NCBI GenBank assembly: GCA_964425625.1
Contig: CAYRMI010000002.1
Coordinates: forward strand, 62,858 to 126,857
Origin: an uncultured Candidatus Saccharibacteria bacterium
GTDB taxonomy: Bacteria; Patescibacteriota; Minisyncoccia; Phycocordibacterales; UBA918
Length of the DNA stretch: 64,000 bases
Direction of reading: 5' to 3'
Shown here: positions 2,269 to 32,762 of the stretch, piece by piece
Numbering within the stretch: position 1 is the first letter of the stretch
Layout: each line of letters starts with the position of its first letter
Position numbers and translations under genes: made by a program
The notes under the pieces: model-generated
What the model was told of the DNA's origin: nothing
Seen by the model: the letters and a program-made list of their open reading frames with translations, nothing else
Database searches by the model: none

Positions 2269-3543
2269 ATGATTTTATTTGCCAGCCTGATTTTTATTAT
2301 CGGCTATATCGTTATCACTCTAGAACACCACTGGAAGATTAACAAATCGCTAACAGCGACCGCTTTGGCGGCTGTCTTATGGGGAGGTTTGGCACTTGCT
2401 GGTTATGACCATGTATTGATGGAGGAGGCTATTCATATGCTGTCAGCCGAAACCTTCTCTCTAGTAGTATTCTTGCTGTCAGCCATGACTTTGGTAGAAA
2501 TATTGGTCCATTACCGCTTTTTTGACTTATTGCGTGCTAAAATCTTTGCTCTTGGTCTTAAAGACGTCGGTCAGTTGGTGCTTATTTCCTCTATCGCTTT
2601 TGTCCTCTCGGCCATCATCGACAACCTAACTACCACCATCGTGATGGTGCAGATCGCTCGACGTTTCTTCAAGGGTACTAATCTCTTGGTAGCTGCGGGG
2701 GCGATTGTTGTGGCAGCTAACGCCGGAGGAGCCTTTTCGCCAATCGGTGACGTAACAACCATCATGTTGTGGTTGGCAGGAAAGTTCACCGCCTTGGAGA
2801 TTCTTCTCTGGGGATTTTTACCTGCATTGACTATTTATGTAGTGAGTATGTTGCTTTTTGTGCGTCAAATAAAAGGTGATACTTCAGATATAGTACCGAC
2901 TACTTTTGAAGAAGTAAATCTAACGTTCCCAGAAAAGACGATTATTGCCACCACTTTCGCTTCTTTTGCCTTACCGCCAATAGCTCATCTTTTTGGCCTG
3001 CCACCTTTTATGGGATTAATGCTTGGCGTAGGTATCGTTGGCTTGATGGTGGCCTGGTTTGCCAATACTGCCTCCGAACGTGAGTCGCACCTCTCGATGG
3101 ATATTGAAAAGCTCTTGGGTAAGTTAGATATTACCAGTTTACTATTTTTTATTGGTATCCTTTTTGCTGTTGGCGCCCTTGGCTTCTTAGGTATTCTTGA
3201 TCAGATATCTGGAGCGGTGTTTGGTGCTGAACCGGAGGCTTCTAGACTGATAGCGGGAAGTGTTTTCTTGGGTGTCTTCTCAGCTATCTTGGATAATATT
3301 CCACTGACGGCAGCGGCGCTTGATATTCTCCAAACTACCGACTCCCGCATTTGGATTCTTTTGGCTATCTGCGTTGGAACGGGCGGGTCAATGCTCGTTA
3401 TTGGTTCGGCCGCTGGTGTAGTGGCTATGGGTATGGTAAAAGAGCTTAGCTTTAAGCAATACCTTCATATTGCAACTATCCCAGCCACCGTTGGTTATGT
3501 GGCGGGCATTGGTGTGTGGTGTATACAGTATTGGTTGTTTTAG
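2269..3543 (+). CDS. ArsB/NhaD-superfamily ion transporter (Na+/H+ antiporter NhaD-like or CitMHS-like permease).
   Basis: 424-aa polytopic membrane protein. It has duplicated halves with IDNLTTTIVM and ILDNIPLTAAAL motifs typical of the ArsB/NhaD permease fold. Confidence 0.55.
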   Translation: MILFASLIFIIGYIVITLEHHWKINKSLTATALAAVLWGGLALAGYDHVLMEEAIHMLSAETFSLVVFLLSAMTLVEILVHYRFFDLLRAKIFALGLKDVGQLVLISSIAFVLSAIIDNLTTTIVMVQIARRFFKGTNLLVAAGAIVVAANAGGAFSPIGDVTTIMLWLAGKFTALEILLWGFLPALTIYVVSMLLFVRQIKGDTSDIVPTTFEEVNLTFPEKTIIATTFASFALPPIAHLFGLPPFMGLMLGVGIVGLMVAWFANTASERESHLSMDIEKLLGKLDITSLLFFIGILFAVGALGFLGILDQISGAVFGAEPEASRLIAGSVFLGVFSAILDNIPLTAAALDILQTTDSRIWILLAICVGTGGSMLVIGSAAGVVAMGMVKELSFKQYLHIATIPATVGYVAGIGVWCIQYWLF

Positions 3544-10807: not shown

Positions 10808-11047
10808 TTAAATATATAAAGTTAGTAGACTTAAAGCTAAAATGAGGGGTAAGGTAAGTGAAAAATAGAGGACAATGGTGATTTTAGTGACTTTATCATC
10901 CACGCTATATTCTTGCCAGTGATAATACAGCATGAAAGTGAAGACAGTGTAGGCTCCAATCACTGCATAAAAGCCGAGTAATAAAATTGCTTCAAGTGAT
11001 AAGTCGAAGTCGGCCAAGAGATTGCTAGTGAATTCGTCTGTAGACAT
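10808..11047 (-). CDS. Small membrane protein, hypothetical.
   Basis: 79 aa with two predicted TM helices. Co-directional with and adjacent to the PH-domain protein. Confidence 0.4.
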   Translation of the reverse strand: MSTDEFTSNLLADFDLSLEAILLLGFYAVIGAYTVFTFMLYYHWQEYSVDDKVTKITIVLYFSLTLPLILALSLLTLYI

Positions 11048-11051
11048 GTAT

Positions 11052-11786
11052 TTATTGTAGCACTAGTCTAGAAAAGCGTTCGGTACCATATTGGTCAACC
11101 TGGGTATGGACTAGGAAGTGGGATGAGGCTACCTCTACTATAGCTTTTGTCTGTTCCGGTTCGTGTTCCAACCAGAGTTCACCATTTAAAGAAAGATGGT
11201 CAGGAGCTTTAGTAATAATTTTACCTAATAAATCAAAGCCTTGTTGCTCTGCATAAAGAGCGAGAGCTGGTTCAAAGGCGACAACACTTAGTTCGGTTCG
11301 ATTAAGTTCTTTGTCTATATATGGTGGGTTGCTGATTATTAGATCATATTTCTGACCAGAAAGGTTTGCAAATAAATCACCACCCATAATGTTTATCCGC
11401 TCGGAAGTAATTTTGTTAGCCATACAGTTTTTTAGAATCGTGGCATGATGATTTTTATCAAGTTCACTGAAAGTTACCTGGGCTTGGGGATAGGTTTTTG
11501 CGAGAGCTACTCCAATACAGCCACTACCAGCGCAGAGGTCAAGAATATTATGGGGTGTACGATGGTCTTTGGCGTAGGTATTAATTAGTTCATTTACCCA
11601 ATATTCAGTTTCCACTCGAGGGATTAAAGGATGTGAATCTAAATAGATAGTACAGCCCAAAAAGGGTTGGTTTAGAATCACGTACGCTAGTGGTTCGCCC
11701 GCCTTAAGTCGCTCACAGTCAAGCAAATAATTTTGGCTCCTTTTGCCTTGGTATTTATCTTTAAGTAGCCAGTCAAAATCGTTCAT
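11052..11786 (-). CDS. prmC: Release-factor glutamine N5-methyltransferase PrmC/HemK.
   Basis: SAM-binding motif LCAGSGCIG and the catalytic NPPY in ISNPPYIDKEL. The start is ambiguous between ATG 11784-11786 and GTG 11805-11807. Confidence 0.85.
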   Translation of the reverse strand: MNDFDWLLKDKYQGKRSQNYLLDCERLKAGEPLAYVILNQPFLGCTIYLDSHPLIPRVETEYWVNELINTYAKDHRTPHNILDLCAGSGCIGVALAKTYPQAQVTFSELDKNHHATILKNCMANKITSERINIMGGDLFANLSGQKYDLIISNPPYIDKELNRTELSVVAFEPALALYAEQQGFDLLGKIITKAPDHLSLNGELWLEHEPEQTKAIVEVASSHFLVHTQVDQYGTERFSRLVLQ

Positions 11787-11887
11787 GATTGTACTATTGC
11801 CGGACACTTGTTTTTTGTCAATGATAATTTAAGTTGCACACAGGTGTGATGAAGTTGGGAGAGTTTATTTGTTACACTAGAGTCAGT

Positions 11888-12916
11888 ATGAAAAAGAATA
11901 CCAAATTGTATGAGACAGTGGCTACTTTGATGGCACCAGGAAAGGGAATTTTGGCAGCTGATGAGAGTGATGCGACAGCGGGGAAAAGACTGGCGATGGT
12001 GCATTTACCAAATGACTCTGAGAATCGACAGGATTTTCGAGAGCTGTTGTTTACCGCACCGGGCATAGAAGAATATTTATCAGGTGTAATTTTGTATGAT
12101 TCTACACTACGTAGCTTTACTGACGAAGGTATCCCATTTCCTGATGTACTAACAGCTAAAGGGATTGTACCTGGTATTAAAGTTGACTTAGGAACGGTTG
12201 ATGTTCCTGGCTTTAAGGGAGAAGTGGTTACACAGGGGCTAGATAGTCTGGCTGAGCGCTTTGCCGAGTACTATGACTATGGTGCTCGCTTTGCTAAGTG
12301 GAGAGCAGTCATTACGATTGATGACGAGGATACACCAACTGATGCCATATTGACTATGAACGCGATGATGTTGACTCGTTACGCTCAGATTGCTCAAGCG
12401 GCTGGTATCGTACCGATTGTTGAACCAGAAGTAATATACGCTGGTGATCATTCTTTGGTTAAAGCCGAACAGGTTACTACTCGGACCTTGCAGATTTTAT
12501 TTCAGACTCTAATGAACTACAAAGTCGACTTAGAGGCATTGATTCTGAAATCCTCTATGGTTTTGGCGGGAGATATGTATACAGAACAATCGACTCCTGA
12601 ACAAATCGCCAACGCCACTTTGCGGTCTTTCCACATGGCTGTTCCGTATGAAGTGGGAGGGATTGTTTTCTTATCTGGAGGACAAACGCCTAAGCGTTCG
12701 ACTGAAAACCTCAATGCCATTGCCAAATTTGGCGAACAACCTTGGCCTATCACATTCTCGTATTCTAGAGCCATTGAGGAACCAGTCCTCTTAACTTGGC
12801 AAGGGAAGCCAGAAAATATAATTGAGGCTCAGCAGACCTTGCTTTATGTAGCAAAAATGAATAGTCTGGCCAGTTTGGGAAAGTATGATGGAGCGCTCGA
12901 TAAAAAACTTAAGTAG
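11888..12916 (+). CDS. fba: Fructose-bisphosphate aldolase, class I.
   Basis: ILAADESDATAGKRL class I signature and a Schiff-base lysine region. The start is taken at the internal ATG (MKKNTKLYE) rather than the upstream ATG at 11834. Confidence 0.9.
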   Translation: MKKNTKLYETVATLMAPGKGILAADESDATAGKRLAMVHLPNDSENRQDFRELLFTAPGIEEYLSGVILYDSTLRSFTDEGIPFPDVLTAKGIVPGIKVDLGTVDVPGFKGEVVTQGLDSLAERFAEYYDYGARFAKWRAVITIDDEDTPTDAILTMNAMMLTRYAQIAQAAGIVPIVEPEVIYAGDHSLVKAEQVTTRTLQILFQTLMNYKVDLEALILKSSMVLAGDMYTEQSTPEQIANATLRSFHMAVPYEVGGIVFLSGGQTPKRSTENLNAIAKFGEQPWPITFSYSRAIEEPVLLTWQGKPENIIEAQQTLLYVAKMNSLASLGKYDGALDKKLK

Positions 12917-20214: not shown

Positions 20215-21648
20215 TTAACCAGCGACAAAAGTCAGAGCACCACCACGCTTGCTACCGCGACCAGTACGACCAATGCGGTGTACATAATCTTCATAGGTAT
20301 TCGGCAAGTCATAGTTAATGACATGAGAGACGTCGTCAACGTGGATACCACGAGCGGCTACATCGGTGGCAATCAGAGCTTGAATTTGACCGGCCTTGAA
20401 ACGCTGGAGGGCCCGTTGTCTTTGTCCGTGTGACTTATTGCCATGGATAGCATCGGCTTTGATACCGGCATGCACTAATTCCTGACTTAGTTTTTCCACA
20501 CTGTGCTTCATGGCACCAAAGATAATGACGCGAGTAAACTCAGGTTTCTTCAACATCGCTACCAAAGTATCAAACTTGTTATGGTGTTCATAGCGAACGA
20601 CATCTTGGGTGATAGTGTTGATGATGTCATTTTTCTTGATTGAGACTGTCACTGGTTTACGCAAAAATTCATGGATCAAGCCCTCGATAGATTTTGACAT
20701 AGTCGCCGAGAAGAAGAGAGTCTCCCGCTCATCTGGGACATCCTTAAGAATTTTCTTGATATCGTGAATAAATCCCATATCGAGCATACGGTCAGCTTCG
20801 TCCAAGATGATAGTAGTGATACCGCCTGGTTTGATATGGCCACGATCAAGTAAGTCCTGGACGCGACCTGGGGTACCAATAATGAAATGGTTTTTACGCT
20901 TTAGACCCATAATCTGAGGGCGGATATTCATCCCACCAACGCAAACAGTCGAATAAAGTTGCATCTTTGGAGTCAGACGACGAAACTCCTGTTCGACTTG
21001 GATCGCTAGCTCACGAGTTGGAGTAAGGATGAGGGTTTGTCTAGAAGGTTCGCGTAGAGTCTTGTGAATGGTTGGCAGTAAAAAAGCTGCGGTCTTACCG
21101 GTACCAGTTTGAGCTAGACCGACGACGTCATTTCCGTCCATGATATGGGGAATAACTTGGTCCTGAATCGCACTAGGAATAGTGATACCCATCGCTTCGA
21201 CTGATTCAACAATTCTTTGGTCTAGACCAAAATCCTTGAAGGTATGAGTAGCCGTATAAGGGGCTTCGGGCGAGAGTGGGGCCGGGTGTAGGTTGATAAA
21301 TTTAGAAACATCAAAGGTTTGTTGGACTCGTCGTCCACGACCACTACCACCGCGTCCACTGTTACTTCCGCCACGGTTATAACCACCGCGGTTACCACCA
21401 CTGGCAAAACTGCTACGAGGACTGCTACTTCGCTCGGTCCGGTTTGGGTAAATAAACTTACTACCAGTAGCGGTAGGGCGACTTGCGGTAGAACGAGGGC
21501 GAGCGGATGAACTACCAGTACCTCTCGTGTGAGAGGTAGAATGAGTACTTGAACCACTAGCAGAATGAGGGCGGGCACTACTAAAAGTGCGCCGAGGACG
21601 GTTACTAAAAGAGGTCGACCGACTAGGTCGGCTATCTGAACTATGCAT
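20215..21648 (-). CDS. DEAD-box ATP-dependent RNA helicase with an N-terminal Ser/Arg/Gly-rich low-complexity region.
   Basis: Motifs Q, I (AQTGTGKT), II (DEAD), III (SAT) and VI (HRIGRTGR). The first ~110 aa are SR/RGG-rich. The start is taken at the ATG 21646-21648 (MHSSDSRP), 27 codons downstream of the listed ORF start. Confidence 0.85.
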   Translation of the reverse strand: MHSSDSRPSRSTSFSNRPRRTFSSARPHSASGSSTHSTSHTRGTGSSSARPRSTASRPTATGSKFIYPNRTERSSSPRSSFASGGNRGGYNRGGSNSGRGGSGRGRRVQQTFDVSKFINLHPAPLSPEAPYTATHTFKDFGLDQRIVESVEAMGITIPSAIQDQVIPHIMDGNDVVGLAQTGTGKTAAFLLPTIHKTLREPSRQTLILTPTRELAIQVEQEFRRLTPKMQLYSTVCVGGMNIRPQIMGLKRKNHFIIGTPGRVQDLLDRGHIKPGGITTIILDEADRMLDMGFIHDIKKILKDVPDERETLFFSATMSKSIEGLIHEFLRKPVTVSIKKNDIINTITQDVVRYEHHNKFDTLVAMLKKPEFTRVIIFGAMKHSVEKLSQELVHAGIKADAIHGNKSHGQRQRALQRFKAGQIQALIATDVAARGIHVDDVSHVINYDLPNTYEDYVHRIGRTGRGSKRGGALTFVAG

Positions 21649-21824
21649 TATATTTTTATTGTTTAAGAAATTGCTAGGCAATTTCAGGATTGTGCAGTAA
21701 GTAAATCCAAACAAGTCACAAACTTCCAATAAATGGGGGTGACGGCTATTGGCCGCTCAAGAGCCCTACACGAGATTCTCAAGGTGCTAAGATAATAGCA
21801 TTAATGTAGAGAATAGTCAACACA

Positions 21825-21857
21825 GACTTGCAAAAGTATTGACAAAGTACTATTGTG
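21825..21857 (+). promoter_or_regulatory. Putative sigma70-like promoter for the small secreted-protein gene.
   Basis: TTGCAA, a 17-nt spacer, then TATTGT. The following ~60-nt leader contains two hairpins (GTCTGC...GCAGAC and CCATCG...CGATGG) and the SD AGGAGAGAG. Confidence 0.3.
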
Positions 21858-21924
21858 TGTTGGTCTGCCACAGGAGCAGACTCGGCCATCGGCCTCTCGA
21901 TGGTCGATACCAGGAGAGAGCACG

Positions 21925-22272
21925 ATGAAAAAAAGGAAGGGGTTAATCATAGCCCTATACGTAGCGGTACTATCCAGCCTAGCTTTGGCAGAGGAAGCAA
22001 CTCCATTGCCGATGGTTGAGGTTGGGCCAGGACTGACTTGTCTAAAACCACGCAAGTGGGAAGGAATCGATGTGTCGGGGCAGGCTGTTGGCTGTTCTGA
22101 TCTAGGCTTGGGGTTCGCCCTGGGTCTTAAAACATCGTTGCGGGTTGATACTGGATTGGCTCTAGCCCGCTGGGGTATGGGCCTGCGCTATCGCTACAGT
22201 GGCTCTGAGGAAGTTGAGGCAACTCGGCTCTCCAATGGGTCATTTTATGTCGTCTATCGGCGCAAGTTGTAA
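21925..22272 (+). CDS. Small secreted Gly-rich protein, hypothetical.
   Basis: Signal peptide MKKRKGLIIALYVAVLSSLALA. SD AGGAGAGAG lies 4 nt upstream. G+C is higher than the flanks. Confidence 0.5.
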   Translation: MKKRKGLIIALYVAVLSSLALAEEATPLPMVEVGPGLTCLKPRKWEGIDVSGQAVGCSDLGLGFALGLKTSLRVDTGLALARWGMGLRYRYSGSEEVEATRLSNGSFYVVYRRKL

Positions 22273-22503
22273 AGACGAAGTCACCATGAAGTTCTGATGG
22301 TGACGGCCTCGCTTTTTTGGCGGGGTCTTTTTTATTGTCTATTTTATCGCAAAGAAAAAGCGAAGGACGTACTGACGAAGATTTTGAAGAAGGTCGAACC
22401 TTCTTTATCAATCTGGTAAATAGTCAAATTATGGATAAAGTTATACGGGCAATCAATTTAAGTGATAGTATTATCGTAATTAGATAAATTTCTATTTTAT
22501 ACT

Positions 22504-23871
22504 ATGAATTTTGAAAAACCTGGATACGGAAACAGATTTGATGGGAATCATGAACCTCGTCCAGTCGAGGGTGAGGAGGTTCCGGGGGCAGATTATTTTA
22601 ATTCATCGTCTGGTGGTTTTGCGAACGATAAATTTTATTCCCAAGCTACCAATTATGCCGAAAAGATGGATCGAGAAAAACTCGAGCAGTTAGAGACGTT
22701 ACGACAGCTCTATGCAGCTCCGTTTCCGGTCAAACAACTCAATGTTGAAACACTGGCGGGGGCCGAGTACAGTAAAGAAAAAGAACAAGAAGATAGAGGG
22801 TATCTAGAAGCGTGGCGGTCGTATCACGAAGGGAAGAATAAATGGCTTGCGGATGAGCTGCGAGTTCAAAAAGATGAGAGAAGGAAGCTGGCCCAAACCT
22901 ACGATGAGCGGCAGGTGATTGATGATTGGTATTTTGCTGAGACACAGCGGCTATTTGTTGAACAACAATCTACCTTCACTCAGTATATGGAGAGGCTAAA
23001 TCAAATAAACCAAGGGGTATATCGTTATCGTACGTCGGCGTTTACTGGCTCTGCTTATTCGGGTACTTCCCAAGGAAGTCCGTTTGGTGAGAGGGTAGAG
23101 CCGAATTCTAATATTCAAGAGGAAACCGTCACCCCGGAAGAAAGACCTGCTCCGGCAATAGATATTGAAGCTTTACTGGCCGCGGCACGCAAGGAAGCTG
23201 AAGAGAGAGAAGCGGCCCAGCAGGAAAGGATACGAAAATTGAAAGAGAAAGAAGAAAGAGAGGCTAGAGAACATCAAGAACGCATGCGGCAAAGGCAAGA
23301 ACGTCATGATCGGGTGATGAATATCTTGTCCGAAATTAAAAATAAAATGCTTCGTTCGCTGGCGGGTCTTACTCAGGCGACGCCGGCCGATGAATGGTTT
23401 TATAAAAAGTGCCAAGAGTTGCAAGATGGCTATAGTTCACCAGATCAGTTAGATGAATTTTATACAGGGGTAGAGAAGGCAATGTTTGAATATGAAGAGA
23501 TGAAGGCAGCAGAAACTTTTCAAGAACCACCGCATAGAGAAGCCGAAAACGTAAACGAGAGAGAGTCAACGATTGATGCTTCGCAGGCAGAGCTTTTAGC
23601 GACGTTCGGCTTAACATCGGCAGAGTATGATGTGGTGATGAGTGATAAAGGGGTAGACATCTCTCCGGAACTGCTGAGGTCGTTAGTGTTGAGGATAATG
23701 AAGGTTGAAAATCCGCATGATACAGAAGCAGTAAAGAAATCATTCAGAAGGTTGGCAATGGATTGGCATCCGGATCGAAGCAGTGATAAGTACAAACTAT
23801 TTAATGCGCAAAAGTTTGCTGTTCTGAATGCTTTTTATAACAACATCTATCGACCGCGTTTTAACATATAA
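22504..23871 (+). CDS. J-domain protein with a C-terminal DnaJ domain, a central ERK-rich coiled coil and an N-terminal domain of unknown function.
   Basis: C-terminal KKSFRRLAMDWHPDRSSDKYKLFNAQKFAVLNAFY carries the HPD tripeptide in J-domain helix II-III context. A long charged E/R/K segment spans residues ~215-265. Confidence 0.7.
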   Translation: MNFEKPGYGNRFDGNHEPRPVEGEEVPGADYFNSSSGGFANDKFYSQATNYAEKMDREKLEQLETLRQLYAAPFPVKQLNVETLAGAEYSKEKEQEDRGYLEAWRSYHEGKNKWLADELRVQKDERRKLAQTYDERQVIDDWYFAETQRLFVEQQSTFTQYMERLNQINQGVYRYRTSAFTGSAYSGTSQGSPFGERVEPNSNIQEETVTPEERPAPAIDIEALLAAARKEAEEREAAQQERIRKLKEKEEREAREHQERMRQRQERHDRVMNILSEIKNKMLRSLAGLTQATPADEWFYKKCQELQDGYSSPDQLDEFYTGVEKAMFEYEEMKAAETFQEPPHREAENVNERESTIDASQAELLATFGLTSAEYDVVMSDKGVDISPELLRSLVLRIMKVENPHDTEAVKKSFRRLAMDWHPDRSSDKYKLFNAQKFAVLNAFYNNIYRPRFNI

Positions 23872-23881
23872 GGTATAAAGA

Positions 23882-23914
23882 AACCCGCCAAGACGAGTTT
23901 CTCGTTGGCGGGTT
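23882..23914. terminator. Bidirectional terminator between the convergent J-domain gene and the minus-strand operon.
   Basis: AACCCGCCAA-GACGAG-ttt-CTCG-TTGGCGGGTT with a 10+5-bp stem, followed by GTTTATT. Confidence 0.7.
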
Positions 23915-23916
23915 GT

Positions 23917-24771
23917 TTATTCATTGAACGCATCTGCACTTCTTTCGGCAAAGTACATCATACCTTGCTGGCCCGTGAAGACCGAGATAGGTGACTTATT
24001 GCCAAAAAAAGCATTTGCGTCCTGTGATTTTAGGAAACTACCAACTATCTTGCAGTAAACCGCTTGTAGCTCGAGTGGTATTTCTGCTTTATGCGCGCGA
24101 AGCCTCGTTCCTGCTTCTTCAAGTGACGGCCTCTTTCTCCGGGCTAATTGTTTCAGAATACCTCGAGTCAAGTAAGGTCCGACCGCGAGTCCGTAGATAG
24201 TCGCTAGAAATTGTGAGTTGCAAATGCTATCACACAACTCATCGCGAAAATCATGTACTTGGCCCTGGACGCGCAAAATGAAGAATTCAGCCAGGGTGAT
24301 GGATGCATCTATCTTTTTTCTTTGGTTGATTTCTTCCTCGAGGACCTCCAAGGCATCGTTTGTTGATAGGTGAAGTTTTTCCGCCTTCTCCACCAGGAGA
24401 TCGACTAAGTCTAAATCGCCCTTTCGTCGTGGCAAGAACTCAACTGTCGGTAACTGACTAAGCTTGCGTAGTTCAAGTACTCCTTCTCGCAAAATCCGCG
24501 ACAGTGGTTCTCTCTTTACTTCCCAAACAGCGTCACCGGGGTGGCTACTTAGGTAATAGGAAATTATGCTGTCGATGAGACGTACGGCATAACTATAACT
24601 CTCCTTCCGCGCCGAAGCGCGGAAGAATCGTTCGACTGTCTTTAGCGTGAGGTCTACACCTTCTTGCTTTAGACGCTCGACATCTCCCTCAACCAGCACT
24701 CCTTCGCTTAAACCGCGCAAGAGTACTTGTTGGAAAGGAGAGAGCTTAGGGTAGGTTTTCACCATTTCCAT
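23917..24771 (-). CDS. Hypothetical protein, third gene of the J-domain operon.
   Basis: 285 aa from the ATG (MEMVKTY) that is preceded by GGAG. No motif I recognise. High G+C. Confidence 0.5.
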   Translation of the reverse strand: MEMVKTYPKLSPFQQVLLRGLSEGVLVEGDVERLKQEGVDLTLKTVERFFRASARKESYSYAVRLIDSIISYYLSSHPGDAVWEVKREPLSRILREGVLELRKLSQLPTVEFLPRRKGDLDLVDLLVEKAEKLHLSTNDALEVLEEEINQRKKIDASITLAEFFILRVQGQVHDFRDELCDSICNSQFLATIYGLAVGPYLTRGILKQLARRKRPSLEEAGTRLRAHKAEIPLELQAVYCKIVGSFLKSQDANAFFGNKSPISVFTGQQGMMYFAERSADAFNE

Positions 24772-24799
24772 GACTAGCTCCTTTCCAAGATTGAGGATT

Positions 24800-25480
24800 T
24801 CAGGCGAACGGATCGTCAGTCGGGGAGAGCTCATCAACAAACCGTTGGCGTGCAGTCCGGCGGAGCTCTTCTTCAATATCAGTCCCGCTCCGCTTGGCCG
24901 AAATCACCAGCTCACTGACCTTATGGAAGGTCTGTGGCGCGTTGATGCGCAAAGACCAGGTGAGCTCCTGCCAGTTGCCGACTTCGATAGTCGCTTCCGT
25001 GACCGCTGGACCGTCCTCCGTAAACCTGCCATGGCGCACGTAAGACGAGAACTGAACCGGCGGAAAGACGGAGGCGAGCGCCAAGAGACCAATCGGGCTC
25101 TTCCCGAGTTCGCGGAAGTACTTCCCGCGTGCCCTGGATTCCAGCTGGAGAATGACGCCACAGATTACTTCACAGATGGTGCTGGCGCTACCTTCCGGTC
25201 GCTTACCGTCGTCAACCAGAGGCAGGCGCTCAACCGCTTCGAGCAATTGGCGGGGAGTCAGCAAGGCACCGACTATGCCGGGCTTGCTGTAGTCAAAGCC
25301 GCGAACGATGTCCGCGACGACCAGTGCCGGGAGCTTGGCCACGACGAGCGCAGCTACCGAATCACCGTTGGCGTCGGCGATGCTCTGCACGGCCTGGTCG
25401 GCAGCGAGGGCACCGTTTTGACGCAGAATGGCGACGATGGCGGTTGGCTGTTGGTCAGCCGGAATGAGGTTGAGGTTCAT
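24800..25480 (-). CDS. Hypothetical protein, second gene of the J-domain operon.
   Basis: 226 aa from the ATG (MNLNLIPADQQ) with SD AGGAGAG overlapping the upstream stop. Ala/Val/Leu-rich and protein-like. The plus-strand ORF 24770..25495 is Arg-rich and judged antisense. Confidence 0.5.
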   Translation of the reverse strand: MNLNLIPADQQPTAIVAILRQNGALAADQAVQSIADANGDSVAALVVAKLPALVVADIVRGFDYSKPGIVGALLTPRQLLEAVERLPLVDDGKRPEGSASTICEVICGVILQLESRARGKYFRELGKSPIGLLALASVFPPVQFSSYVRHGRFTEDGPAVTEATIEVGNWQELTWSLRINAPQTFHKVSELVISAKRSGTDIEEELRRTARQRFVDELSPTDDPFA

Positions 25481-25491
25481 TTGTTTCTCTC

Positions 25492-25782
25492 CTAATTGTT
25501 GAGTTGGGTGAGGGTGGACTGGATGAAGTCCTCCCACGCAGTTTGGGCTGCGAGGGTAGGTCTCTCGACTAACTCTGTCAGCACGCGATGATCATACGCC
25601 GCTCGCTTTTCAGAGTCACTTAGTGTTTCATAGGCCTCCTTTGCCTGTTGAAATATTTGCGTGAGCTTGGTGTCATTGTCGTTACGATCCGGATGGGTTC
25701 GCATGGCAATGACACGAAAGCGGTCAGTGATCTCCTTAGTGGTCGCCGAAGGCAACACACCAAGGATGTTGTAGTAGTCCAT
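25492..25782 (-). CDS. Stand-alone J-domain protein (DnaJ-like co-chaperone, 96 aa).
   Basis: DYYNILGV...HPDRN...AKEAYETLSDSEKRAAYD is a near-canonical J-domain. A short C-terminal tail follows. Confidence 0.85.
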   Translation of the reverse strand: MDYYNILGVLPSATTKEITDRFRVIAMRTHPDRNDNDTKLTQIFQQAKEAYETLSDSEKRAAYDHRVLTELVERPTLAAQTAWEDFIQSTLTQLNN

Positions 25783-25954
25783 TTGTAGTTTCCTTTATCA
25801 AGGTCCATCTTTTTTTAGTATAGCATAAAAGAATTAAAAGTCAATAGCTTGGCTTAAAATATGGCTAAAATAGTGGATAGGGTGGTTTTATTATTGGGTG
25901 ACCTGTGTTATTATGCCGGCGCTAGAGCGCTCTGTGCGTTCTGGGTAGATTTGT

Positions 25955-26725
25955 ATGTTTTCCTTGATTAACACAGCGTACGCAGCGGAAGGCGGTATTC
26001 ACGTCGCTCTTAAACCGTATATTGTAGGTGAGTTTTTTGGTATACCAATTACAGCCACTCTACTCACTACTTGGCTTACTATGGCCGTTCTTATCATTAT
26101 GGCGATTGTTGTCCGCCGTCAGCTTTCCGCTATTCCCGGTAAGCTCCAGAGTATGGCGGAGATGCTCATCGGTGGAGTGTTTGATTATATGAGTGATGTA
26201 CTGGAGAGTCGCCCCATGGCCATGAAGTACTTTGGCGTGGTAATGACAATTTTTATCTTTGTCCTGACGCTCAACTGGATTGGACTATTACCGGGAGTGA
26301 CCTCAATCGGCTATACGCACGACGGACACTTTATTCCTTTCTTATATCCAGCTGCCACCGATCTCAATTTGACCCTGGCTTTTGCCTTGATTGCTTTTGT
26401 GACCATTGAGATGGCTGGTTTTGTGACACTAGGCTTCTTTAAGTACGCCGGTAAGTTTATCAATTTTTCTTCACCCTTGGCTTTCATCATTGGCCTCATT
26501 GAACTCATCTCTGAGCTGGCTCGTCTAATTTCGTTCTCCTTCCGTCTTTTCGGTAACATTTTCGCCGGCAAGACTTTGCTAGTGGTGATTATGTTCTTTA
26601 TCCCGTATATCGTGCCGGTGCCACTAATCGCCTTTGAGGTGTTTGTTGGTTTTATTCAGGCTTTTATCTTTGCCATTTTGACCTTGTTCTTTATTAAGTT
26701 GGCAGCCGCCGAGCCCCAACACTAG
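25955..26725 (+). CDS. atpB: ATP synthase F0 subunit a.
   Basis: Polytopic with the conserved Arg region ISFSFRLFGNIFAGKT. Confidence 0.85.
   Translation: MFSLINTAYAAEGGIHVALKPYIVGEFFGIPITATLLTTWLTMAVLIIMAIVVRRQLSAIPGKLQSMAEMLIGGVFDYMSDVLESRPMAMKYFGVVMTIFIFVLTLNWIGLLPGVTSIGYTHDGHFIPFLYPAATDLNLTLAFALIAFVTIEMAGFVTLGFFKYAGKFINFSSPLAFIIGLIELISELARLISFSFRLFGNIFAGKTLLVVIMFFIPYIVPVPLIAFEVFVGFIQAFIFAILTLFFIKLAAAEPQH

Positions 26726-31361: not shown

Positions 31362-32762
<1,401 letters not shown>

Follow-up and report, generated by a model that had tools for sequence, protein, structure and literature searches.

In Shewanella oneidensis, the Atc ('adaptation to cold') proteins are encoded by atcJABC (SO_1850, SO_1849, SO_1848 and SO_1846; Maillot et al., 2019, PMC6715715). 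AtcJ, a J-domain protein of 94 amino acids (aa), engages DnaK through its HPD motif and AtcC through a C-terminal P-x7-W peptide (PMC6715715; bioRxiv 10.64898/2026.09.07.749886), the tryptophan of which is essential for AtcC binding (bioRxiv 10.64898/2026.09.07.749886). AtcC (298 aa) binds AtcB (252 aa), which in turn binds the β′ subunit of RNA polymerase (RNAP) via two aspartates that lie 23 residues apart, D37 and D60; the other published RNAP-binding pairs, D28/D51 and D33/D56, are equally spaced (PMC6715715; bioRxiv 10.64898/2026.09.07.749886). DnaK recruited by AtcJ and AtcC limits the inhibitory AtcB-RNAP complex, and AtcA is dispensable in Shewanella (PMC6715715; bioRxiv 10.64898/2026.09.07.749886). 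Non-canonical Atc systems have been described in Verrucomicrobium sp. GAS474, Solidesulfovibrio magneticus RS-1 and Janthinobacterium sp. B9-8 (bioRxiv 10.64898/2026.09.07.749886). Here we describe a minus-strand operon at positions 25782 to 23917 of a 64-kb stretch of contig CAYRMI010000002.1 (the window, meaning the whole stretch that was analyzed). It is very probably a remote, AtcA-less atcJ-atcB-atcC operon of a host that probably belongs to the Candidate Phyla Radiation (CPR), and we propose that it works by a mechanism of the Shewanella type.

The genes of the operon are, in order, atcJ (25492–25782), atcB (24800–25480) and atcC (23917–24771), all on the minus strand. They encode a class-C J-domain protein of 96 aa, an all-helical protein of 226 aa that is predicted to be the RNAP-binding component, and a helical protein of 284 aa that is predicted to act as an adaptor for both the AtcJ tail and AtcB. 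A preliminary description of the window had listed these genes and two neighboring open reading frames (ORFs) on the plus strand, and all five ORFs were found at the positions it gave. The junctions are as tight as it had stated, with 11 nt between atcJ and atcB and 28 nt between atcB and atcC, and the Shine-Dalgarno sequence ahead of atcB (TAGGAGAG) overlaps the atcJ stop codon. The third ORF, for which 285 aa had been given, also exists, but its likeliest start is an ATG one codon 3′ of the GTG, since the N termini of homologues match there, yielding 284 aa. Approximately 35 nt 5′ of the atcJ start is a promoter-like site (25817–25844, minus strand) composed of TTGACT, a 16-nt spacer and a TG-extended TATACT. 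As this site was the joint best consensus match in a 4.5-kb scan (10 of 12 positions, with the TG), we infer that it may drive the operon.

AtcJ matches the full 63-position Pfam DnaJ model (8e-22), in keeping with its earlier designation as a canonical J-domain protein, and carries HPD at residues 30–32. Its C-terminal extension bears P75-x7-W83 (P75-TLAAQTA-W83; ERPTLAAQTAWEDF). The P-x7-W motif is kept in five of the six loci that have the trio and is degenerate (Leu...Phe) in the sixth, L008, where it resembles the degenerate motifs of non-canonical Atc systems. All 18 canonical AtcJ proteins that we recovered have the motif, in tails reading '...NPLETAxEIW...', and a hidden Markov model (HMM) of canonical AtcJ matches the 96-aa protein at 3.7e-22. 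The NCBIfam model for AtcJ, NF050028, misspells the protein name as 'ActJ' ('CldAdptActJ', with the description duplicated), so text searches for the name fail. L008 additionally contains, ~3 kb 3′ of its atc trio, a 466-aa ORF (10832–12232) with a J-domain-like segment that the canonical AtcJ HMM matches at 1.1e-6.

For the 226-aa and 284-aa proteins, scans against Pfam, PADLOC, PHROGs and NCBIfam returned nothing usable. These misses bear out the statement in the preliminary description that neither protein could be recognized, and explain why its author could not name them. Its further statement that no described system could be named for this gene content did not hold, as the operon corresponds to the Atc system (PMC6715715; bioRxiv 10.64898/2026.09.07.749886). 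The first pointer to this system came from a 'faint' Pfam AtcB_N tag that had been precomputed for one relative. A word-indexed search of 5.8e9 proteins found seven relatives of the 226-aa protein (46–100% identity) and four of the 284-aa protein (46–99%). When a profile of the 226-aa family was compared with 1.84e9 representative sequences, 146 matches of ~220–260 aa were obtained. Sixteen of the 40 distant relatives scanned match NCBIfam NF047889, 'cold adaptation protein AtcB', and a GD-x22-D motif is carried by 132 of 145 relatives. In the CPR-type family, D40 and D63 of AtcB, which are 23 residues apart, are invariant and align with D34 and D57 of the canonical protein, and the conserved tail reads DP[FY]A.

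Profile-profile comparison extended these results to both proteins. The canonical alignments were built independently, from metagenome loci found with canonical AtcB. That scan gave 80 loci, of which the well-flanked ones read J (92 aa)-A (~180–200 aa)-B (~235–256 aa)-C (~400–440 aa), and L014, L015 and L019–L097 yielded canonical four-gene operons. Using hhalign, the 226-aa family aligned with canonical AtcB over 211 columns at 98.9% (E = 1.6e-17; ~22% identity) and the 284-aa family with canonical AtcC over 270 columns at 96.1% (E = 2.9e-9), whereas all six cross-pairings, which served as controls, remained at or below 1%. The canonical AtcB HMM matches the 226-aa protein at 1.1e-12 and the canonical AtcC HMM matches the 284-aa protein at 6.3e-5; among 1253 six-frame ORFs from the window and seven related loci, these two HMMs matched only the expected ORFs, and the canonical AtcJ HMM matched two further J-domain proteins, weakly. 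An HMM of the 284-aa family did not match three AtcC candidates significantly, and the homology emerged only with a profile of 35 canonical AtcC sequences. The order J-B-C was found in every locus that covers all three genes (L006, L008, L009, L011, L012 and the same-species loci L001 and L003); two other same-species contigs, L002 and L004, break off at atcJ or inside it. Counted by species, seven further metagenomic loci carry the unit, among them L005 with atcB and atcC. The homology of the three proteins, the diagnostic motifs, the gene order and the conservation of the operon as a unit are shown by these data. Judged by sequence, the trio is a remote Atc subfamily and not an equivalog, because it misses the NCBIfam cut-offs. 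Since the Pfam and NCBIfam models miss this clade, surveys of Atc systems that use BLAST or equivalog HMMs probably undercount them.

The locus shares much with Shewanella AtcJABC: a short J-protein with HPD and P-x7-W encoded by the first gene, an AtcB with an aspartate pair of the same 23-residue spacing, an AtcC of the short type (~290 aa) encoded 3′ of atcB, and tight junctions, such that J-B-C is J-A-B-C minus A. Protein sizes are also similar (96, 226 and 284 aa here; 94, 252 and 298 aa in Shewanella). It differs from the Shewanella system in lacking atcA, in having sequences that lie beyond the NCBIfam equivalog and Pfam models, and in its host, which is probably a CPR bacterium and not a Gamma- or Betaproteobacterium. 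The non-canonical systems of GAS474, RS-1 and B9-8 are likewise divergent operons outside the core proteobacterial group, but they keep four genes and a long AtcC, whereas this operon has no AtcA and a short AtcC. The nearest architectural match that we found is L016, where a J-B-C operon likewise without atcA lies in other genomic surroundings. In L016 (2011–4197), a 92-aa J-protein and a 235-aa AtcB-like protein without the GD-x22-D motif are followed by an AtcC that is split into ORFs of 64 and 285 aa, both of which match the AtcC profile, reflecting a frameshift or an assembly error; the operon adjoins SLH-domain, MiaB-like and LepA genes. That a J-B-C core persists without AtcA is consistent with genetics in which AtcA proved dispensable, and such a core could serve as a minimal system for studying the mechanism.

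Several observations weigh against placing the trio in the Atc family or against carrying the Shewanella mechanism over to it. The NF047889 AtcB equivalog (cut-off 440 bits) did not match the 226-aa protein at E ≤ 0.1, and NF050028 matched the 96-aa protein at 8e-11 over positions 3–92 of 93 with 42 bits, compared with a cut-off of 150. With these direct models failing, membership rests on the profile-profile comparison and the motifs. Published Atc operons are said to carry four genes always, and AtcA HMMs found no match among the ORFs of the 64-kb window and of the seven related loci (best E = 0.67); AtcA is poorly conserved, however, and even a divergent AtcA reached no better than E = 0.018. 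Nor can atcA lie between atcJ and atcB, where the gap is only 11 nt. Neither dnaK nor rpoC is in the 64-kb window. As some divergent AtcBs fail to bind heterologous (E. coli) RNAP (PMC6715715; bioRxiv 10.64898/2026.09.07.749886), RNAP binding by the AtcB described here would be an extrapolation. Lastly, the taxonomic assignment of the host is indirect and the labels conflict.

With regard to the host, it is likely a bacterium of the Patescibacteria (CPR), of uncertain class. One of the related loci, L008, is labeled as a Gracilibacteria metagenome-assembled genome (MAG). The AtpD encoded in the window (31395–32762) shares 92% identity with a protein from a 525-kb contig of a 'Candidatus Paceibacteria' MAG and 96% identity with one from a 7-kb contig labeled Syntrophomonadaceae/Bacillota; these conflicting labels suggest a mis-binned contig. 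Atc in this phylum is not reported in PMC6715715 or bioRxiv 10.64898/2026.09.07.749886. The link from DnaK through AtcJ, AtcC and AtcB to RNAP, which has been reported mainly from Beta- and Gammaproteobacteria, would thus extend to what is probably a reduced-genome CPR bacterium.

How might the three proteins function? By analogy with the characterized homologues, on which all the interactions and the physiological role proposed for this organism depend, AtcJ would stimulate DnaK through its HPD motif, while the P-x7-W helix containing W83 would dock on AtcC. AtcC would bind AtcB, and AtcB would contact the RNAP β′ subunit via D40 and D63. DnaK delivered by AtcJ and AtcC could then limit or remodel an inhibitory AtcB-RNAP complex. 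In this way chaperone activity would be coupled to transcription, probably under cold, as in Shewanella, or another stress. The preliminary description had suggested that J-proteins of this region recruit host DnaK to the two proteins it could not recognize. By the logic of the Atc system this is most probably so for the small J-protein, but the 455-aa J-protein encoded nearby is not part of the module.

It is also conceivable, but unlikely, that the operon is homologous to Atc and has been repurposed, with J-B-C retaining the DnaK scaffold and AtcB acting on a partner other than RNAP or in a role other than cold adaptation. The missing AtcA and the great divergence of the clade, at ~22% identity to canonical AtcB, would fit such a change, as would the behavior of those divergent AtcBs that do not bind E. 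coli RNAP. The predicted AtcB fold, a generic helical repeat of the MgtE-N/FliG type, would also be in keeping with it; the family has no relative in the PDB and no sequence-profile match to PF03448 (MgtE_N) or to FliG domains. In addition, the CPR-type genes bear lineage-specific nucleotide features, described below, that canonical operons do not have. Set against these points, both aspartates that would contact RNAP are invariant in the CPR clade and their spacing is retained in the 132 of 145 relatives with the motif, the P-x7-W peptide of AtcJ is kept, and loss of AtcA is tolerated in Shewanella.

A comparison had also been drawn with DjlB and DjlC, which serve HscC. The likeness is that a dedicated J-protein gives client specificity to an Hsp70. 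The differences are that no Hsp70 paralogue is encoded in cis and that a separate adaptor, AtcC, would be bound by a short C-terminal peptide; the 96-aa protein has no sequence relationship to DjlB or DjlC beyond the J-domain. The reported absence of a cognate Hsp70 in cis was reproduced, as the window has no Hsp70-sized gene: its four ORFs of more than 550 aa encode a UvrD/PD-(D/E)XK helicase-nuclease, a DUF11 surface protein, a GT2 and a GH15 protein.

The region had first drawn attention as a G+C-rich island, said to be in the mid-50s% over 4 kb and to represent a foreign, horizontally acquired block. A windowed G+C profile, the check that had been proposed, does show a deviation. Whole-window G+C is 43.8% and that of the span 21730–25800 is 48.5%, which is ~2 standard deviations (sd) above the mean and is exceeded by three of 600 4-kb stretches. 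The local rise is thus real, but it falls short of the mid-50s over 4 kb and is strong over only ~0.9 kb, at 24700–25600, where G+C reaches 0.58 (~4 sd for 900-bp windows), the strongest peak of the window; the next-highest 900-bp window elsewhere has 51.6%. The peak coincides with atcB, which has a G+C of 60.6% and a G+C content at third codon positions (GC3) of 0.70, compared with 0.42 ± 0.07 in 53 other ORFs of the window. In contrast, atcC is near background (G+C 0.47, GC3 0.47) and the 455-aa gene is at background (0.45 and 0.41). The GC3 excess of atcB recurs in all seven lineages examined, at +0.07 to +0.31 over neighboring ORFs in loci of 37–50% G+C. Canonical proteobacterial-type atcB genes show neither this excess nor the excess folding considered below. 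The long antisense ORF that had been noted in the rich stretch is present (24770–25495, plus strand, 241 aa). We considered whether it could be a genuine overlapping gene and rejected this, as the full-length frame occurs only in the window and is missing from six orthologues; it is thus a by-product of G+C richness. This locus illustrates how a local G+C peak beside unannotated genes can be read as a foreign island when it is in fact gene-specific and conserved in each lineage examined.

These data bear on the proposal that the region is an imported phage, plasmid, defense or anti-defense cassette whose two J-proteins hijack host DnaK, which we now regard as very improbable. The proposal draws on the fact that the region holds the strongest G+C peak of the window, on the rarity of the trio (four to seven homologues among 5.8e9 proteins by the word-based search), on neighborhoods that differ by lineage, on the lack of the trio beside the atp operon of L098, and on a RhuM-like fragment that adjoins the trio in L012. 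However, only the middle gene is strongly G+C-rich, and its gene-specific excess recurs in genomes of 37–50% G+C. PADLOC gave only chance-level matches (E = 0.015 and 0.024) and PHROGs matched only through the J-domain or a low-complexity region, so that the 226-aa and 284-aa proteins have no meaningful match in either, and the second J-protein, which had no match among phages or viruses, is not retained along with the trio. In the literature, vertical inheritance of atcB, atcC and atcJ has been reported (PMC6715715; bioRxiv 10.64898/2026.09.07.749886).

Synteny points the same way. L005 retains atcB and atcC on a contig that ends inside atcB, and the pair has the genes for the DEAD-box helicase, TruB, GH15, GH57 and GT5 as neighbors, just as in the window; between the two loci, identity is 58–86% for housekeeping proteins and 51–60% for the Atc proteins. 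These shared neighbors suggest inheritance in place: the operon seems to have occupied this position at least as far back as the ancestor that the host shares with the L005 organism. Conserved synteny of the block as core genes had been put forward as an observation that would count against foreign origin, and it was found in part: the neighbors are the same in L005, but they differ in L006, L008 and L009, and the 455-aa gene is missing from all four loci. The flanking genes are SpoU, SurA and MgtE in L006, RecJ in L008 and a ribosomal-protein operon in L009. In L009 (180–4425), atcJBC lies directly 3′ of rplP-rpmC-rpsQ-rplN-rplX-rplE and seems to break into this cluster at a point where it would normally continue. 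The trio is missing from the atp-adjacent region of L098, whose AtpD is 92% identical to that of the window and whose atp operon is preceded by other genes. Such a patchy distribution may reflect an ancient transfer into the lineage. The confinement of the G+C excess to the middle gene, its recurrence in each lineage and the L005 synteny together argue against recent import, which is largely refuted, and against a defense role.

If composition does not mark atcB as foreign, what does it reflect? In each of six loci tested, the predicted folding of the CPR-type atcB and atcC mRNAs is more stable than that of synonymous-codon shuffles (z = −2.2 to −6.7), compared with mean z values of −0.62 (sd 1.78) for 20 control genes of the window and −0.38 for eight canonical atcB genes (Mann-Whitney p = 3e-5 for the excess, from values that are not independent). 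In the window alone the effect is modest, with z = −2.2 for atcB, matched by five of the 20 controls, and −4.45 for atcC, matched by one. The GC3 excess of atcB and the excess predicted folding of both mRNAs set this operon apart from canonical ones and hint that selection acts on the nucleotide sequence or the RNA. One speculative and rather unlikely possibility is that an RNA-level device in atcB-atcC, for instance a structure that responds to temperature or a throttle on translation, sets the dose of AtcB as a potentially toxic RNAP inhibitor. If so, the Atc system of these ultra-small bacteria would be pared down to three proteins and supplemented by an RNA layer. We found no conserved RNA structure at the atcJ-atcB junction, and Rfam gave no match at the gathering threshold over the whole window, nor at E ≤ 0.1 over 21600–26000.

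Convergent with atcC is the plus-strand gene for the 455-aa protein (22504–23871), which has a Glu/Arg/Lys-rich middle and, as had been described, a C-terminal J-domain with HPD (Pfam DnaJ at residues 398–446, 5.4e-7, above the Pfam cut-off). Its PDB matches are confined to the J-domain. Between the two genes is a hairpin (23882–23914) that is a candidate bidirectional terminator. Its predicted folding energies are −23.1 kcal/mol on the plus strand and −21.5 kcal/mol on the minus strand (z = −5.2 and −6.5), and no shuffle was as stable. Of the strong shared terminator that had been proposed here, the very stable hairpin is present, but its T-tail is weak and a consensus terminator scan did not call it.

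We consider it extremely unlikely that the trio works together with the 455-aa J-protein as a fourth, lineage-specific component, which might for example replace AtcA or compete as a DnaK adaptor. The gene for this protein adjoins the trio, shares the hairpin with it and encodes an intact HPD. However, the gene is present only in contigs of the same species (L001, L002 and L004), its 90% cluster has one member, and it is missing from L005, L006, L008, L009, L011 and L012; in L012 a different gene occupies the slot. Moreover, it has no similarity to AtcA or AtcC profiles, and its background composition is unlike that of atcJ and atcB. The earlier grouping of both J-proteins into one four-gene module thus fails, and the 455-aa protein, an orphan among J-proteins, occupies a variable slot and lies outside the atc module. 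In L012, the next relative, a truncated RhuM-like gene (2728–3084) stands between atcC and the gene for the 115-aa protein. As candidates for a hidden AtcA, we considered the N terminus of the 455-aa protein, the 115-aa protein and other ORFs, and rejected them for want of an HMM match.

The 115-aa protein (21925–22272, plus strand), previously described as small, Gly-rich and secreted, has an N terminus that, judged by eye, resembles a signal peptide. It has no family match in Pfam, PADLOC, PHROGs or NCBIfam, and an orthologue of 59% identity occupies the same relative position in L012. It is a neighbor unrelated to the atc module. A terminator-like site follows at 22305–22327, and the structured leader noted previously is also predicted here: the segment 21760–21930 (plus strand) folds at −55.5 kcal/mol (z = −4.0), without an Rfam match, and the L012 contig ends before the corresponding leader. 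Beyond it lies the DEAD-box helicase gene (20215–21729, minus strand), which encodes a Ser/Arg/Gly-rich low-complexity N-terminal extension of ~130 residues, whereas gene callers begin the protein so that it has 477 aa. This extension gives rise to a second, small G+C bump (0.53 at 21250–21549) and to long ORFs in other frames on both strands.

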